Assembly: GCA_021421665.1 (NCBI GenBank)
Contig: GCA_021421665.1_4698.1
Direction: 5' to 3' (one strand)
Length of the DNA stretch: 32,908 bases
Source of the DNA: a phage
Shown: in pieces, positions 3,229 through 30,548 of the stretch
Layout of the letters: the number at the start of each line of letters is the position of its first letter
Position numbering within the stretch: the stretch's first letter is position 1
Position numbers and translations under genes: made by a program
Notes under the pieces: model-generated
What the model was told of the DNA's origin: nothing
Database searches by the model: none
Seen by the model: only the letters and a program-made list of their open reading frames with translations

Positions 3229-3326
3229 TGAAAACTGCTTTTATCATTCTTGGTATTATATTATTTATGGTAGTGTTCTGGGCTTTCTCTGGCATTGACC
3301 CAGATTGTGATGGTAACTACGACTGA
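3228..3326 (+). CDS. small hydrophobic protein (32 aa), putative membrane peptide
   Basis: ATG overlaps the polymerase stop (taATGa); MKTAFIILGIILFMVVFWAFSGIDPDCDGNYD has one predicted transmembrane stretch; below ORF-track cutoff. Confidence 0.3.
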   Translation: MKTAFIILGIILFMVVFWAFSGIDPDCDGNYD

Positions 3327-3385
3327 GTTATACTCAAGGTCACTTACTAGTGGCCTTTATGAATAACTTAAATGAGGCAAATACT

Positions 3386-3646
3386 ATGATTAAATACACT
3401 GCTTATCAATTAACTAAAGACCGTAAGATAGGTGTTGAGGTTAAAGCTTGGAATGAAGGACACATCACTGTAGTTATAGAGTGTCTCCAAGACAATGGTG
3501 TGATGCTAAGAAGCTACCGTTGCTTCACCAAATTACGCTGCAAGGATTTAACTGAAGAATTATTCTTACGTTGTATTGTTGAATCTATTAAACTTATTAG
3601 ACCCTACGCCAAGCAAGTTGTAGGTAATGTCACAGTAGTACATTGA
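3386..3646 (+). CDS. hypothetical protein (86 aa)
   Basis: ORF-track ORF 3350..3646; ATG at 3386 is preceded by GAGG at a suitable distance; in-frame alternatives at 3350 (GTG) and 3359 (ATG). Confidence 0.5.
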   Translation: MIKYTAYQLTKDRKIGVEVKAWNEGHITVVIECLQDNGVMLRSYRCFTKLRCKDLTEELFLRCIVESIKLIRPYAKQVVGNVTVVH

Positions 3647-3668
3647 TTTACTGGACACTATAGAAGGA
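3646..3668 (+). promoter_or_regulatory. SP6-type phage RNAP promoter ATTTACTGGACACTATAGAAGGA
   Basis: Matches SP6 promoter consensus ATTTAGGTGACACTATAGAAGAG at 19 of 23 positions; predicted +1 G at 3663; intergenic. Confidence 0.8.
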
Positions 3669-4059: not shown

Positions 4060-4118
4060 AGAAAGAGATTGTTATGCTGGAGATTGAACTGGACAACCTA
4101 ACTAAGTAAGGAGTTATG

Positions 4119-4415
4119 ATGGAAGAAGTGATTCAAGCTAAACATGTAGGTATCATCTTTCGTGATCTAGAGCAGCGTAAAGTTGCAGGTCATACCCGTT
4201 TGGCTAAAGAAGATGATACAGCAATCGCTACTGTTGAACAAGCAGATGCCTATCGTGGGCCAGAGTTTACTCAAGGTGAAACTTGTCACCAATTGAGCCT
4301 GTCACTTTGTGACACTATGGCTAGTGTGAATGTGCAAGAAGTTGAAGATGGAGACTGTGTTAGCTACGTCTACCCTCTGGACACTGTTGCACGTATTAAA
4401 GTAATTCATAAATAA
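4119..4415 (+). CDS. hypothetical protein (98 aa)
   Basis: AAGGAG at 4108-4113 is 5 nt before ATG 4119 (ATG 4116 is also in frame); stop abuts the next promoter. Confidence 0.55.
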   Translation: MEEVIQAKHVGIIFRDLEQRKVAGHTRLAKEDDTAIATVEQADAYRGPEFTQGETCHQLSLSLCDTMASVNVQEVEDGDCVSYVYPLDTVARIKVIHK

Positions 4416-4436
4416 TTACTGGACACTATAGAACAA
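4414..4436 (+). promoter_or_regulatory. SP6-type phage RNAP promoter AATTACTGGACACTATAGAACAA
   Basis: Core GGACACTATAGAA conserved; predicted +1 G at 4431; intergenic. Confidence 0.75.
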
Positions 4437-4506
4437 TAGGACGTGGGTTTGTCAGAGACAGTAAATCCAAGGTGCTCAGTGAGCGTAAAGCCTAAGCACG
4501 TCCTAT
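4436..4506 (+). promoter_or_regulatory. large stem-loop at the 5' end of the transcript (RNase III-site-like)
   Basis: ataggacgtg (4436-4445) is a perfect 10-bp complement of cacgtcctat (4497-4506), enclosing 51 nt with sub-hairpins; further hairpins at 4531-4547 and 4551-4565; 188-nt untranslated leader before ATG 4625. Confidence 0.4.
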
Positions 4507-4624
4507 GATTGTAAAGTGTTTAACCGCCTTTTGTGCATCTTGCACAACCCGAATCAATCGGGCTTTCTAGTGAGTACATGCTTGTGCTCAGTACAAAGCT
4601 AACTGACAATAGGAGACTAAATAA

Positions 4625-5431
4625 ATGGCACGTGGTGATTTTGATTTTGGTGCTCAGGTTACTAAAGCTGAAGGTAAAGTATTTAAGAACCCTGAAGTTG
4701 GTGATCATGAAGCAGTAATCTCTGGCATCATTCATGTTGGTTCCTTCCAAGATATCTTTAAGAAAGGCAATACCACTGAAGTTAAGAAGCCAGCAAACTT
4801 TGTGCTTGTTAAGATTGTCCTGATGGGTGACGATGACAAGAACGAAGATGACTCTCGCATGGAACAATGGATGGCTGTGCCTCTGAAGTCTGGTGACAAG
4901 GCAACCTTGACTAAATTCCTGAATGCAGTTGACCCTAAAGAGTTGCTAGGTGGCTTCGATGACTTCATCGGCGAATGTCTGACTGCAACTATGGTTGGCT
5001 CTGGAGACAAGAATGACGATGGCTCATTCAAGTATGTCAACTGGAAGGGCTTTGGTGGTATGCCGGATAAGCTGAAGAAACTTGTCATTGCTCAGGTTGA
5101 AGAGGAAGGTCTGTCTATGACAGGTCACATTACCTTCGACAAGCTGACCAAAGAAATCCTTGATGATATTCCAGCTAACTTGGTGCGTCAATATTTCCTG
5201 AATGAGACACCTCGTGGTAAGAACCTGTCTGTTGCTGGCTCTCACGTAGAAGCAATCATTAAAGCTGCTCGTGAAGAAGACCCAGAGTGGAAGAAGTCTA
5301 AGAAGAAAGAGGATGAAGATGCTACCCCAGCTAATCGTAAGCCTCTTGATACTGGTGAGACTGTTCCTCAGGAAGTACCGGAAGCAGACAATGCGCCTGC
5401 ACCGGAAATGGATGAGGACGCGGAATACTAA
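4625..5431 (+). CDS. hypothetical protein (268 aa) with acidic C-terminal tail; candidate ssDNA-binding protein
   Basis: AGGAGA SD; C-terminus ...APEMDEDAEY is acidic and ends in an aromatic residue, as in T7 gp2.5 (...DGDF). Functional call is inference only. Confidence 0.55.
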   Translation: MARGDFDFGAQVTKAEGKVFKNPEVGDHEAVISGIIHVGSFQDIFKKGNTTEVKKPANFVLVKIVLMGDDDKNEDDSRMEQWMAVPLKSGDKATLTKFLNAVDPKELLGGFDDFIGECLTATMVGSGDKNDDGSFKYVNWKGFGGMPDKLKKLVIAQVEEEGLSMTGHITFDKLTKEILDDIPANLVRQYFLNETPRGKNLSVAGSHVEAIIKAAREEDPEWKKSKKKEDEDATPANRKPLDTGETVPQEVPEADNAPAPEMDEDAEY

Positions 5432-7836: not shown

Positions 7837-8836
7837 GCTTCGCAGCTTGTACAAAGACTCCGAGGTACTTGATGCAATCGAGCAAGCTACCGACGAGAAA
7901 GGTAATGTTAATTATAAGGAGATGGCACGGGTGCTATCGTGTCATCCTGTGGGTAAGAAGATTACCCGCCAGTTGGCTCGATACTGGCACGGTCAATTCA
8001 AGAAGACCAAGAAGAATGGTGGTTATTACCAGACCCTTCTGCAAGAAGATAAGCGTATCAAAGAAGAGCGTAGGCTCAGGACTCCTGACCGCTACGAGGA
8101 TTTGGCTATTGTACCACTGCCTGACTCGCCTCATCGAAGTGTACTGGTAATCCCTGATACCCATGCGCCTTATGAGCATCCAGATACTTTAGAGTTCCTT
8201 GCAGCCGTGGCAGCACGTTATCGCCCAGACACAGTGGTACATCTTGGGGATGAGGCAGACAAACATGCCTTGTCATTCCACGACTCTGACCCCAATCTGG
8301 ATAGTGCTGGAGTGGAGTTAGAGAAGGCTCGTGTATTCATGCACAAATTGCACAAGATGTTTCCTGTGATGCGCCTGTGTCATTCTAACCACGGCTCTAT
8401 GCACTTCCGCAAGGCAAGCGCTAAGGGCATCCCTGTGCAATATCTACGTACCTATCGTGAGGTCTTCTTCCCGAATGGAGGTGGCGATCAGTGGGATTGG
8501 CAGCATACGCATGTACTTGAGTTGCCGAATGGCGAACAGGTAGCGTTCAAGCATCAACCTGCTGGCGTTGTCCTAGCAGATGCAGCGCATGAGCGTATGA
8601 ATCTTGTGTGTGGTCATCTGCATGGTAAGATGTCTGTGGAGTATGCACGTAATACTCATGAGCAGTATTGGGCTGTGCAGGGTGGCTGTCTGATTGATGA
8701 GTCGTCTCGTGCATTTGCCTATGGTCGTGAGTCTAAGTACAAGCCAGCATTAGGCTGTGTGGTTATTCTGGAGGGTGTACCACACATTGTCCCGATGCAG
8801 ACCAATAGCGACAATCGCTGGGTTGGTAAGATTTAG
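7829..8836 (+). CDS. calcineurin-like metallophosphoesterase
   Basis: Motifs VIPDTHAP (D-x-H), HLGDEAD (GD), SNHG (GNH-like) and CGHLHG; start placed at TTG 7829 after AGGAGG, with in-frame ATG 7805 as alternative. Confidence 0.7.
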   Translation: MGKLRSLYKDSEVLDAIEQATDEKGNVNYKEMARVLSCHPVGKKITRQLARYWHGQFKKTKKNGGYYQTLLQEDKRIKEERRLRTPDRYEDLAIVPLPDSPHRSVLVIPDTHAPYEHPDTLEFLAAVAARYRPDTVVHLGDEADKHALSFHDSDPNLDSAGVELEKARVFMHKLHKMFPVMRLCHSNHGSMHFRKASAKGIPVQYLRTYREVFFPNGGGDQWDWQHTHVLELPNGEQVAFKHQPAGVVLADAAHERMNLVCGHLHGKMSVEYARNTHEQYWAVQGGCLIDESSRAFAYGRESKYKPALGCVVILEGVPHIVPMQTNSDNRWVGKI

Positions 8837-8853
8837 TTGACACTATAGAACAA
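8831..8853 (+). promoter_or_regulatory. SP6-type phage RNAP promoter ATTTAGTTGACACTATAGAACAA
   Basis: Overlaps the stop codon of the preceding gene; predicted +1 G at 8848; a hairpin (aagggta...taccctt) follows within the first 30 nt of the transcript. Confidence 0.75.
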
Positions 8854-8903
8854 AGGGTAGGTGCTAGCTTACCCTTGATTGTATAGTGAATGGAGGAATT
8901 AAT

Positions 8904-14034: not shown

Positions 14035-14057
14035 ATTTACTGGACACTATAGAAGGG
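14035..14057 (+). promoter_or_regulatory. SP6-type phage RNAP promoter ATTTACTGGACACTATAGAAGGG upstream of the capsid gene
   Basis: Predicted +1 G at 14052; the transcript begins with hairpin gggaga-AATG-tctccc at 14055-14070. Confidence 0.8.
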
Positions 14058-19232: not shown

Positions 19233-22180
19233 TGGCAATTGAGCGACAAGCAGTACAAGGTCTGCCACAAGTGCAGGCCACTTCTCCTAATGTCATGACC
19301 TTTGCACCTCAGCGAGTTGGAGGTGTGGAGGCTGGCGTGGCTTCTACCTCCGGTAGTCGATTTATCGAAGACCTTATTCGAGCAGCCAGCAGTGTAGCTG
19401 ATGTTACCACTGGTATCCTTAATCAGAAGATTGAGGAAGATAAGGTTGTTCAAATGGAACGGGCATATAATGGACTGATGCCTTCTGAGGATGCAACTCG
19501 TGGCGGCGCTCGTGCTAACATGCTTGTCAAGGCTCAACTGCTGGCAAATGACGAAGCAGCACGGATGAAGGATATGGCTACTCGTTTCCAAGGAACGGAT
19601 GATGAGTGGACACAACTCATGGTTGATTCTCGTAATGAGATGCAGAATAAGCTGTTCCAGCAATACCCAGAGCTGCAAGGTGACAAAGATACAATGCGTA
19701 TGGTCACTAACGTCTTCCAAGAGCAGCAGCCTCAGATTTGGGCTACACGAACACAGCATAAACTTGACCGGGAACAGGCAGACCGTGAAGATACCTTTGA
19801 TGGGCGAGTGGCTTCTACTTGGGATTCCAGCATCGACCCAGAAGCCTCTGGTTATGCTTTACAGGAAAGAATCCGCGAAGGACTGACACAGGGCTTACTT
19901 CCTGAGCAGATGCACAAGAAGCTGGTGGCGCGGGCTATTTCACTTGCTCAGGGTGGTGATATCAGCATGGCTGAAGCCTTGAAGTACGTGAAGGACGATA
20001 AGGGTGTTTCTGTCTATGCTAAGAATCCGCAGCTTATCACAGCTATCACTAACGGTAATGCAGTTTGGGCTAGGAATAATGTTGCTGATGTGACTCGCAT
20101 GTCTTTTGAAGTCAAAGAATCCTATCTTGCAGGTGACTTGACGGATGAAGAATTACTGGAGCGAGCACAGCACATTAATAGCCTGACAGGGAACTCTGTT
20201 TTCTCTAATCCAGAACTAGAAGCATTGATGCGCCAACGAGCTAAGCAGAATGCAGAGCTAGGTGCAATGCAGGATATGCGACGTGAACTTTACTCTGACC
20301 GTATGACTGGCTTCCAAGGCAAGACGGATAAAGAGAAGAAAGCCTATGTTGATCTTATCAAGCAAGATAGTCAAACCTATGCAGACCAGCAAATCAAACA
20401 ACGAGGTGTGGACCCTTACAGCCAAGAGGCTGAAGCCATACGTGGTGAAGTAGAAGTACAGCGCCTGCAATTCATGAACTCAAAAGGGTTGGTGGATGAT
20501 ACCTTTGAATCCCGCATCAAAGCGATGGAGTCTTTGCTATCACCAGAGCACTTTGCTAAAGGTGAACCACAGGAATTACTGACCATTCGTAAATTGTGGG
20601 AGCAGCTACCTGAAGAGAGCCGAGGTGTCTTTGGTGACACTGTAAACGGTTATATGGATAATTACTCTACTGCCTTACAAATGGGTGAGACGCCTTTGCA
20701 GGCTGCAAGGTTTGCACGTGAAGCACAGCAGAAATTCTCTCGTACTGAGAAAGAAACTAAGAAGTTCAACTCAGCTATTGGAGATGCATTGGATGTAGTA
20801 TCAGGTGCTGGCTGGTTCGATGGTAAGACAGAAGTGTCTGACTTAGGTAAAGCTATTGCAGAAGAAGAACTACGGGCTAAGGCTAATATGTTGTGGTCTA
20901 GCGGTATGCGTAACATGGATTCCATCAAGAAGGCTTTAATTACTTGGGGCAATAAACGTTACACTCAATCAGAAGATGCAAAGACTTCCGGTGGCTATTT
21001 CATTAAAGGTGATTACACTTCTGCATCTGATATGCTTATGTCAGTTGGGAAAGGCGTAAATCCTACCGATGTACCTCTGGCACTTGGTAGGTATGTAGAA
21101 ACACAGATGCCAGAATTGAAGAAGGAACTTCAAGAGTGGGAAACTAAAGATGATATATACATTGATTACAATGAACAGAAAGGTACTTTCGTGATTCGTG
21201 CTGGTGCAGCAGGTCGCCCTCTTTCTGGAGTAACCCCTATAACCTCTTTAGATACCACTTCACTGCTAGATTCTGCCTATCAGAAGAAAGTAGAAGAACG
21301 AGATAAAGGTGAGTATGTTCACCCGTATCGTACAGATATTGGTGCACAAGAACCTATGCCAGCTAAGCCAACTGCCAAAGATATTGGTAAGTTTGGCCTA
21401 GCTAACTTTCTCATGTCTTCTGCTTTCGCCTCTGGTGAGAATCTACCTTCTAACTTCGAAATTAACTATCGAGGAAATATGCAACAATTCTATGACAAGT
21501 TAGCTATGGATGAGAACAAAGACAAGGTTGGCTTTAATAATGCAACTGGTACTTTTACTCCATACAAAGATGCTCACGGTGAATCTATTGGTTATGGTCA
21601 CTTCTTGACGGAGGAAGAGAAGCGGAACGGGTACATTAAGATCGGAGATGAATTAGTCCCGTATCGAGGGTCTATGTCTCAGCTTACAGAGAGCAAAGCT
21701 CGTGCTCTTATGGAGCAAGACGCTAAGAAGCATGTGCCACCCACTCGTGACTGGAAGATTCCATTTGACCAGATGCATCCTGCACAGCAACGTGGTTTGA
21801 TGGACTTAACCTACAATCTAGGTAAAGGTGGAATCCAAAATGCACCACGTGCTCTTGCTGCATTCAAGGCGGGTAAACTTACTGAAGGCTTTATCGAAAT
21901 GCTTGGCACTGCATCTAGTGAAGGTAAGCGTATCCCTGGCCTACTGAAGCGACGCGCTGAGGCTTACAATATGGCATCTGCTGGTGGTGTACCTAAGATT
22001 ACCGAAGTAGAAACTCGTGAAGATGGTTCTATGTGGGTTAAGTTCGGTGGACCTATGCCAGCAGGTTCTGTCTCAGCGTGGACTCATAAACGTATTGGTG
22101 CGGATGGCTGGTATCAAGTTTATGAGGCTGCACCTACCAAGTTAGCTAAAGGCTCTAAAGTAGGTAAAGTTAAGTTGTAG
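19232..22180 (+). CDS. internal virion (ejection) protein with C-terminal T4-lysozyme-like (GH24) domain
   Basis: 982 aa; C-terminal block YKDAHGESIGYGHFLT...GLMDLTYNLGKGG resembles recalled T4 lysozyme YKDTEGYYTIGIGHLLT...AINMVFQMGETG. Confidence 0.8.
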   Translation: MAIERQAVQGLPQVQATSPNVMTFAPQRVGGVEAGVASTSGSRFIEDLIRAASSVADVTTGILNQKIEEDKVVQMERAYNGLMPSEDATRGGARANMLVKAQLLANDEAARMKDMATRFQGTDDEWTQLMVDSRNEMQNKLFQQYPELQGDKDTMRMVTNVFQEQQPQIWATRTQHKLDREQADREDTFDGRVASTWDSSIDPEASGYALQERIREGLTQGLLPEQMHKKLVARAISLAQGGDISMAEALKYVKDDKGVSVYAKNPQLITAITNGNAVWARNNVADVTRMSFEVKESYLAGDLTDEELLERAQHINSLTGNSVFSNPELEALMRQRAKQNAELGAMQDMRRELYSDRMTGFQGKTDKEKKAYVDLIKQDSQTYADQQIKQRGVDPYSQEAEAIRGEVEVQRLQFMNSKGLVDDTFESRIKAMESLLSPEHFAKGEPQELLTIRKLWEQLPEESRGVFGDTVNGYMDNYSTALQMGETPLQAARFAREAQQKFSRTEKETKKFNSAIGDALDVVSGAGWFDGKTEVSDLGKAIAEEELRAKANMLWSSGMRNMDSIKKALITWGNKRYTQSEDAKTSGGYFIKGDYTSASDMLMSVGKGVNPTDVPLALGRYVETQMPELKKELQEWETKDDIYIDYNEQKGTFVIRAGAAGRPLSGVTPITSLDTTSLLDSAYQKKVEERDKGEYVHPYRTDIGAQEPMPAKPTAKDIGKFGLANFLMSSAFASGENLPSNFEINYRGNMQQFYDKLAMDENKDKVGFNNATGTFTPYKDAHGESIGYGHFLTEEEKRNGYIKIGDELVPYRGSMSQLTESKARALMEQDAKKHVPPTRDWKIPFDQMHPAQQRGLMDLTYNLGKGGIQNAPRALAAFKAGKLTEGFIEMLGTASSEGKRIPGLLKRRAEAYNMASAGGVPKITEVETREDGSMWVKFGGPMPAGSVSAWTHKRIGADGWYQVYEAAPTKLAKGSKVGKVKL

Positions 22181-22194
22181 TACCTAACTCAAGG

Positions 22195-22222
22195 CTTGTC
22201 TCACATGTGAGACAGGTCTTTA
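22195..22222 (+). other. hairpin cttgtctcac-AT-gtgagacagg followed by TCTTTAT (family member)
   Basis: 9 to 10-bp stem seen directly; T-rich tract follows; between the two large internal virion protein genes. Confidence 0.4.
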
Positions 22223-22244
22223 TGATAGGCACTATGGAGGAACT

Positions 22245-30454: not shown

Positions 30455-30477
30455 ATTTAGGTGACACTATAGAAGAG
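30455..30477 (+). promoter_or_regulatory. canonical SP6 promoter ATTTAGGTGACACTATAGAAGAG upstream of the tailspike genes
   Basis: Exact 23 of 23 identity to the SP6 promoter as used in cloning vectors; predicted +1 G at 30472. Confidence 0.9.
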
Positions 30478-30548
30478 ATAGAGTGGCGATCATTTGGTCG
30501 CCTTTACTCAAGGTGCTCATGGTGGGCGCTTTAAGTAAAGGAGGAAAC

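Follow-up and report, generated by a model that had tools for sequence, protein, structure and literature searches.

The phage genome analysed here (NCBI GenBank assembly GCA_021421665.1, contig GCA_021421665.1_4698.1; hereafter the window, i.e., the whole stretch of 32,908 nt) has a long structured leader in front of gene 16, and on balance we lean towards the interpretation that the base of the first hairpin of this leader is a T7-type ribonuclease III (RNase III) processing site overlapping the gene 16 promoter, judging from sequence comparison. Taken as a whole, the leader would most likely be an ordinary signal for mRNA processing that has escaped annotation and that carries two optional RNA modules. 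The window belongs to Vectrevirus (the K1E/K1-5 group; Autographiviridae, Molineuxvirinae), and the 800 bases around the leader match 84 phage records at 80–99% identity. The leader is intergenic, between the homologues of K1E gp15.5 (4116-4415) and gp16 (4625-5431), and the promoter upstream of gp16 is kept in relatives. We take +1 to be G4431, by analogy with the SP6 promoter. The parts of the promoter and first hairpin are as follows:

4414-4431, plus strand: SP6-type phage RNA polymerase promoter ATTACTGGACACTATAG, with its presumed +1 at G4431
4422-4433, plus strand: 5′ strand of the lower helix, where promoter positions -9 to -1 and +2/+3 pair with 4509-4520
4434-4435, plus strand: 5′ side of the internal loop (CA), facing GA at 4507-4508
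4436-4445, plus strand: 5′ strand of the upper stem, ATAGGACGTG, the exact complement of 4497-4506
4446-4496, plus strand: module A, an apical insert of 51 nt with two predicted sub-hairpins and a three-way junction
4497-4506, plus strand: 3′ strand of the upper stem, CACGTCCTAT, pairing with 4436-4445
4507-4520, plus strand: 3′ side of the internal loop and 3′ strand of the lower helix, GATTGTAAAGTGTT

An earlier note on this DNA had described a perfect 10-bp long-range stem at the start of the leader, and its two strands are indeed exact reverse complements of each other. The inverted repeat goes beyond what was reported there: between 4423-4445 and 4497-4519, 19 of 23 nucleotides (83%) are complementary, and the repeat extends into the promoter. 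Because its 5′ strand includes promoter positions -8 to -1, ahead of the transcription start, the helix can form in full only in read-through RNA or in DNA. Read-through RNA (4421-4521) folds with a z-score of -3.84, none of 200 shuffles being as stable, as opposed to -2.52 for the transcript started at +1. Its fold consists of a lower helix of 6+2 bp, then 2 bp, then the 10-bp upper stem, interrupted by 1x1 mismatches and one 2x2 loop, and G4431 faces G4511 in the lower helix. The two-helical-turn architecture of RNase III sites is thereby present in the read-through RNA and not in the transcript started at 4431. This also bears on the resemblance to T7 RNase III sites that the earlier note saw in the leader. 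The resemblance holds for the first hairpin, for a reason other than the one given, as a 10-bp stem, which is all that the transcript started at 4431 offers, is too short for RNase III, and the T7-like layout (lower helix, loop, 10-bp upper helix) appears only when -8 to -1 pair with 4512-4519; it does not hold for the two short hairpins named further downstream, which belong to a separate, optional module of three hairpins without counterpart in many relatives. The broader claim that the leader is structured survived the folding check, 4431-4630 reaching -58.9 kcal/mol (z = -2.69, with 4 of 200 shuffles as stable). Sub-hairpins inside the 10-bp stem are likewise predicted in the fold, though the stretch that would form them (4446-4496) folds no better than chance (z = -0.25).

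The processing we propose would start from transcripts of upstream promoters (e.g., 3652) running through the gene 16 promoter; such read-through is expected, as the terminator scan found no plus-strand terminator-like site between the promoters at 3652 and 4420. In the read-through RNA, 4423-4430 (i.e., -8 to -1) would pair with 4512-4519, and A4432-A4433 with U4509-U4510, which together with the 10-bp upper stem would make a helix of about 20 bp broken by a small conserved internal loop (GAACA/GAUUG). The predicted cut by host RNase III is in or beside this loop, at about 4506-4511, a position obtained by alignment to the T7 cut in CCUUUAU^GAUU. Upstream and gp16 messages would be parted by the cut, the former keeping a protective hairpin at its 3′ end. 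Transcripts started at G4431 are without the 5′ strand of the lower helix and should escape cutting, and they would keep the hairpin near their triphosphate 5′ end, which may stabilise them too. Module A lies past the 10 bp RNase III would need, and the three downstream hairpins (module B) are accessory cassettes gained, lost and exchanged between phages, these hairpins most likely acting on mRNA stability or 5′-end protection. The cleavage, the position of the cut and the consequences for gp16 expression are what we infer from the observations that follow.

The hairpin base is part of a conserved core, composed of the phage promoter, GAACAA, a covarying stem of 8–10 bp and TGATTGTAxxGT, which recurs at 2–3 promoters per genome in at least five genera (Vectrevirus, Zindervirus, Tuodvirus, Axomammavirus and Acadevirus; also in unclassified Klebsiella phages) and precedes unrelated genes. 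GAACA is invariant across all copies, and TGATTGT in 35 of the 35 distinct ones. Pairs were counted in an alignment (A2) of 24 distinct motif copies, where the upper stem (i.e., its equivalent in short-form copies) is 100% paired, with double-sided changes at six of its nine pairs, and where 87.5% of the cells of the lower helix, formed by promoter -8 to -1 with the right flank, are paired, compared to 30–45% in slid controls. The -7 pair covaries and is never unpaired (CG in 20 copies, GU in 2, GC in 1 and UA in 1). Vectrevirus, Zindervirus and Acadevirus have C:G at this position, the POP72 group has G:C or G:U, and phD2B has U:A. In relatives the upper stem shows one compensatory C-G to U-A change plus wobble changes. 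The covariation analysis proposed earlier as a check on the leader thus returns a first hairpin whose pairing is both conserved and covarying. Plus-strand G.U pairs fill some 15% of upper-stem cells, and since each of these is an A/C mismatch on the other strand, they point to plus-strand RNA as the pairing molecule. The window itself has a second copy of the motif:

8832-8892, plus strand: second motif copy, in short form, upstream of a DUF3310 protein (8886/8904-9443)

The genomes of POP72-like phages each have three such copies.

For comparison with T7, its genome was retrieved and ten RNase III sites were folded, with the promoter coordinates confirmed against the record annotation; the annotation tables of the T7 records do not list RNase III features. 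Seven of these ten sites share ACUCAAGG-stem-CCUUUAUGAUU, with 9 bp in the lower stem and 10 bp in the upper one, the two being separated by a 4x5 internal loop. The layout of the motif is close to this, with a lower helix of 7–8 bp, a loop region of about 5x5 that includes two A-U pairs, and an upper stem of 9–10 bp. Its upper stem has AAGG...CCUU edges, which resemble those of the T7 sites, and is followed by UGAUUG; the edges are AAUAGG...CCUAUGAUUG in the window copy, whose UAUGAUUG is identical in T7 R1.1, and AAAGGUCAUC...GGUGGCCUUGAUUG in other copies. In the POP72_c copy (AAGGTCATCTTCGGGTGGCCTT), 19 of 22 positions match the T7 site R1. The 5′ side of the loop differs, being GAACA in the motif and ACUC in T7 (GAACA/GAUUG versus ACUC/UAUGA for the full loop).

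Several T7 promoters lie inside or beside such hairpins (phi6.5, phi13, phi1.3 and phi1.1A). At R1.3/phi1.3 and R1.1/phi1.1A the arrangement is that of the window, i.e., a hairpin a few bases past the promoter with AAGG...CCUU edges and UGAUU/GUCAUU in the 3′ side of the loop, then a short spacer and a ribosome binding site (RBS), TAACCAATAGGAGAT in T7 and the very similar TAACAATAGGAGAC in the window phage. The short gp16 leader is similar to that of T7 (phi1.3-R1.3-gene 1.3), also in the RBS. The two T7 sites nonetheless have a lower-helix 5′ strand mostly transcribed from the adjacent promoter, whereas in the window phage that strand consists of positions -8 to -1 of the promoter itself, and the complete site exists in read-through RNA only; the window copy also carries a 51-nt branched apical insert that they do not have. 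R6.5 and R13 share with our case that the promoter forms part of a hairpin which only read-through RNA makes, but the promoter occupies the apical region in R6.5 and the 3′ strand in R13, as opposed to the 5′ strand of the lower helix here, and the design found here, unlike theirs, is repeated at 2–3 promoters per genome with a fixed flank sequence. The position is also that of a processing site: intergenic, before an RBS and within a polycistronic transcript (between gp15.5 and gp16, with promoters at 3652 and earlier).

Two covariance models were used to compare the motif with T7 sites in both directions, model R1 being built from seven T7 RNase III sites and the reciprocal model R2 from motif copies, with 8832-8892 among its rows. 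Model R1 places motif copies in the register that had been predicted, the promoter taking the 5′ side of the lower stem, at weak scores of 12–20 bits (20.5 bits and E = 0.022 for phD2B, 16.5 and 13.1 bits for POP72, and 12.1 bits for 8840-8893 of the window). Model R2 gives 78.8 bits to 8832-8892 of the window, though this copy is one of its own rows.

Several points weigh against a processing site at this promoter. Model R1 gives only 5 bits to the short Vectrevirus form of the gp16 leader and does not match the window's own copy, in the latter case because the apical insert breaks the model; elsewhere its matches are in register but marginal (E = 0.02 to 2.7), while canonical sites score 23–54 bits. 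Of the six matches that model R2 has in T7, all of them weak and local, four coincide with R0.3, R1.1 and R18.5 (two of the four on the opposite strand). Pairing in the lower helix is incomplete, as -3, -4, -5 and -6 are unpaired in 2, 5, 4 and 1 of the 24 copies, respectively, and -8 is paired in only half of them, and two or three independent lineages account for the covariation at -7. The complementarity to the promoter could reflect an inverted partial promoter copy acting on DNA, and room for such an alternative is left because the promoter sequence is fixed by polymerase recognition. The T7 cleavage coordinates, which we take to be those of Dunn and Studier (1983), were checked by consensus and fold only. 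Finally, our literature search returned no description of RNase III sites in SP6-like phages and no experimental RNase III cleavage data for the motif.

Sites of the canonical T7 type were found by model R1 elsewhere in the window, in three places:

3322-3376, plus strand: canonical T7-type RNase III-like site (49.3 bits, E = 2e-9)
22177-22239: canonical T7-type RNase III-like site (29.8 bits, E = 1e-4)
321-383: canonical T7-type RNase III-like site (22.7 bits, E = 7e-3)

These matches indicate that the phage carries T7-type sites. All three hairpins are of the form ACUCAAGG...CCUUUAUGA, each lies in a short intergenic gap directly before an RBS, and the one at 3322-3376 was also found by model R1 in K1E, ACG-C91 and SP6; they are unannotated in all the genome records examined. 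They are like the promoter-embedded motif in their presumed host enzyme, in the AAGG...CCUU edges of the upper stem and in their intergenic position before an RBS, and unlike it in having no promoter involvement, simple loops and a strong match to model R1 (23–49 bits). An open reading frame (ORF) at 3386-3646 sits between the first of these sites and the promoter at 3652; the same slot has no annotated gene in K1E and K1-5, and a hypothetical protein in PSK8 and ULINTec7 (785-1045 of the locus).

The first hairpin could alternatively be purely a 5′-terminal stabiliser of the 4431 transcript, protecting it, in the manner of the leaders of ompA or T7 gene 10, against RppH and RNase E, with the extra hairpins adding stability and the complementarity to the promoter being incidental. 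We consider this rather unlikely as the whole explanation, even if the two roles are compatible and may coexist, which makes it a partner of RNase III processing as much as a rival. The promoter core TGGACACTATAGAA occurs exactly six times in the window, and a hairpin directly follows the promoters at 14041, 26691 and 30461 too; a stable hairpin near the 5′ end of the primary transcript is what the ompA and T7 gene 10 leaders have, and the upper stem covaries strongly. The distance from the 5′ end can be read either way. The minimum-energy fold of the primary transcript leaves the first five nucleotides single-stranded, its stem starting at +6, unlike in the ompA and T7 gene 10 stabilisers, while only one is unpaired, with the stem starting at +2, if A4432-A4433 pair with U4509-U4510 as in the read-through fold. 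Five unpaired nucleotides exceed what classic 5′ stabilisers tolerate, in which the hairpin begins some 0–4 nt from the end. These stabilisers need neither conserved flanks nor complementarity to untranscribed promoter bases, and a stabilising role alone leaves unexplained why TGATTGTAxxGT is invariant while the sequence of the stem is free to vary, why the flank can pair with promoter bases ahead of +1 and changes in step with -7, and why the motif resembles T7 RNase III sites in sequence.

The remaining alternatives concern the leader beyond its core, or the palindrome as such, and for the former the composition of the leader has to be considered. Alignment of relatives separates it into three parts, namely the universal core, module A and module B, the last preceded by a linker:

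4520-4530, plus strand: hypervariable linker, with indels and 0–2 extra GTTGAT repeats in relatives
4531-4547, plus strand: hairpin 1 of module B, 7 bp with a 3-nt loop (z = -3.66)
4548-4562, plus strand: hairpin 2 of module B (CCCGA/TCGGG), followed by CTTTCT (z = -3.1)
4563-4599, plus strand: hairpin 3 of module B, 5+2+8 bp (z = -3.22), missed in the earlier note

Module A starts directly past the tenth base pair of the upper stem, and would in this way leave intact the helix length that RNase III needs. It is optional, most relatives having a loop of 6–8 nt in its place: the window, PSK8, NIC06P3, mutPK1A2, P433.1, CrRp3, SP6 and contig L035 have it, and K1E, K1-5, ACG-C91 and UAB78 have the short loop instead. 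K1E, K1-5, SP6 and the window carry module B, which ACG-C91-type phages and UAB78 do not have. Each of the four possible combinations of the two modules is found, contig L035 being the case of A without B. Module B is dispensable, because many phages with a 96–97% identical gp16 are without it.

The first hairpin of module B is exactly as had been described, TTGTGCA-TCT-TGCACAA, and among 19 relatives its stem is invariant apart from two breaks of the outermost pair, the loop having four variants. The second exists as well (CCCGA-ATCAA-TCGGG), 3 nt away from the 4551-4565 assigned to it earlier, and shows a compensatory change to CCCCA/TGGGG in NTNC80A. In the third, three of three stem substitutions in relatives keep pairing via wobble. 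Judging from these substitutions, phages that have module B also preserve its structures. AUUGU (4508-4512) is predicted to pair with ACAAU (4606-4610), which would close the module. For module A, the covariation test met too little variation, and 131 of 500 shuffles reached the observed score.

Core and module A together are identical between the window and SP6 at 88 of 89 positions, while the gp16 coding sequences are 79.5% identical; divergence of the same region within the genus can exceed the difference between the window and SP6 (L024). This distribution points to horizontal exchange of a cassette, to strong constraint, or to both. It is conceivable that modules A and B form a cassette of structured RNA that passes horizontally between phages and has its own function, although we hold this to be unlikely in either of two forms. 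The cassette could yield a stable small RNA of about 75 nt, released by RNase III from the 5′ end of the gp16 message, that could act in trans as a decoy, sponge or anti-defence RNA, or it could be an RNA operator tuning gp16 synthesis. If so, the 88/89 identity with SP6, despite 79.5% in gp16, would reflect selection on the RNA.

Slightly less credible still is that the palindrome acts as DNA, be it in polymerase binding or pausing, as a replication or recombination signal, or as a hairpin in single-stranded DNA. The complementarity does take in promoter bases that are not transcribed from the promoter, and the right flank, read backwards, mimics positions -7 to -1 of each phage's own promoter. 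T7 RNase III-site palindromes are moreover known to trigger the Lamassu DdmABC defence, which senses them as DNA (PMC11707656). The variation, however, points rather to an RNA, as G.U pairs are frequent on the plus strand only, and the G.U/U.G variants of the lower helix (TATAGTT in POP72, TGTAGTG in ACG-C91) fit RNA pairing better. The inverted copy is also without the -8 to -12 specificity region, the centre of the palindrome covaries instead of being conserved, which is atypical of a protein-bound DNA palindrome, and the arms are 51 nt apart in the window, a distance that would be unfavourable for a cruciform.

No more probable than an action as DNA is that the leader controls gp16, either as an operator for gp16 or another phage protein, or as an attenuator via 4548-4562 and the following CUUUCU. 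The end of the leader and the gene it serves are:

4605-4615, plus strand: AACAATAGGAG, which holds the Shine-Dalgarno sequence GGAG (4612-4615) and resembles the RBS region of T7 gene 1.3, TAACCAATAGGAGAT
4625-5431, plus strand: gp16, 268 amino acids, of phrog_862, a family of unknown function

The Shine-Dalgarno sequence is where the earlier note had placed it (about 4612), the ATG is at 4625, and an in-frame TAA occupies 4622-4624. The leader is unusually long (194 nt) and structured, and CCUAU (4502-4506) is complementary to AUAGG both at 4437-4441 and in the Shine-Dalgarno region (4610-4614). Hairpin 2 of module B, with its 5-bp stem (4 G-C) followed by CUUUCU, resembles a weak terminator, and is given as a putative terminator in one relative's record (ARNOLD prediction, -8.5 kcal/mol). 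Then, gp16 has an acidic C-terminal tail with an aromatic last residue (..MDEDAEY); tails of this kind occur in single-strand DNA-binding proteins of phages, and some of these proteins regulate their own mRNA. On the other hand, terminator-like sites are not enriched in the scan (3 found, compared to 2.4 expected from shuffles), and gp16, which is conserved across Molineuxvirinae and more distant podophages (216 phage records), shows no profile similarity to T7 gp2.5. It also has no Pfam match and no PDB match by sequence or profile, and its single-sequence AlphaFold model is unusable (pLDDT, the predicted local distance difference test, of 40). The modules are missing beside a 96–97% identical gp16 in many close relatives and thus cannot be required for its control; and with these modules optional and the same core preceding unrelated genes, control specific to gp16 is unlikely.

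Near the RBS, a direct repeat, ACAATAGGA, is present at 4433-4441 (in the 5′ arm of the hairpin) and at 4606-4614 (overlapping the Shine-Dalgarno sequence), both copies being complementary to UCCUAU...UUGU at 4501-4512. An alternative pairing that hides or frees the RBS by way of this repeat is conceivable.

That the extra leader sequence is non-functional debris (i.e., an insertion or recombination scar) folding by accident is very improbable: the locus does attract insertions, including homing endonuclease genes in K1-ULIP33 and related contigs, the linker varies in its number of GTTGAT repeats, an unrelated apical expansion arose independently in a metagenome contig, and the fold of module A is not above chance, but each hairpin of module B is significantly stable (z of about -3.1 to -3.7), all but three of the stem substitutions of module B in the 19 relatives keep pairing, one of them by compensation, and conservation between genera is higher for modules A and B than for the genes beside them.

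Other candidates were tried and rejected. A minus-strand promoter at 4507-4530 has a mismatched -8 to -12 specificity region. The earlier note had seen no convincing ORF in the leader, and this stands, as the 28-aa (4516-4602) and 61-aa (4533-4718) ORFs are not conserved; a small ORF or leader peptide is rejected on account of indels of 1, 2 and 5 nt that break the frames and of the absence of the whole module from many relatives. It had also offered a regulatory RNA element as an alternative, which found no backing in known regulatory RNA families: Rfam gave no match at gathering score in the whole window and only noise (E <= 10) in 4350-4700, and ARAGORN found no tRNA or transfer-messenger RNA. 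A dispersed mobile element (similar to miniature inverted-repeat transposable elements) or an origin in the host is rejected too, since the leader is present as a single copy in orthologous position in 42 of 42 matching phage records and has no match in 5,426 E. coli genomes.

If the promoter-embedded site is indeed a processing site, SP6/K1E-like phages would use host RNase III as T7 does, a trait missing from every genome record examined, in a group that is used in phage therapy against K1 E. coli and that is the source of SP6 RNA polymerase. The design would be a compact one, the promoter also serving as one of the two strands of the processing site, and the read-through and local messages of one gene would receive different 5′ ends, which would probably mean different stability or translation. 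The finding gives coordinates for the mapping of RNA ends and improves the annotation of the subfamily. The palindromes of the motif are also of the kind known to trigger Lamassu defence (PMC11707656), and the optional modules provide a natural deletion series for the role of structured 5′ leaders.

The intergenic space before gp16 is an insertion hot spot. K1-ULIP33 (734-1201) and contigs L033 and L193 have a gene for an HNH homing endonuclease between the promoter-hairpin motif and gp16, and the number of GTTGAT repeats in the linker varies among K1E, K1-5, ULINTec7 and Sem1. The metagenome contig mentioned above (L201, SXGQ01097635.1, Tuodvirus-like) has the same hairpin, at about 190-330 of the locus, with an unrelated apical expansion of some 40 nt; its upper stem is 12 bp long, its flanks are unchanged, and a partial duplicate of the UGAUUGUAU flank lies inside the expansion.

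Four Klebsiella S16a-like phages (L016, L199, L200 and L205) have a different gp16 leader, again with a hairpin after the promoter. There a long-range stem, GUAUCUGGGUG/CACCACAGAUAC, encloses an insert of 60–70 nt, which varies between otherwise similar phages. Within the window, the promoter at 30461 (region 30461-30540) is followed, 6 nt past +1, by UAGAGUG, the complement of promoter CACUAUA, and next by a hairpin, ACUCAAGGUGCUCA...UGGGCGCUUUAAG, with edges like those of T7 sites. This region has the string CAAGGTGCTCA in common with module A (4468-4478).

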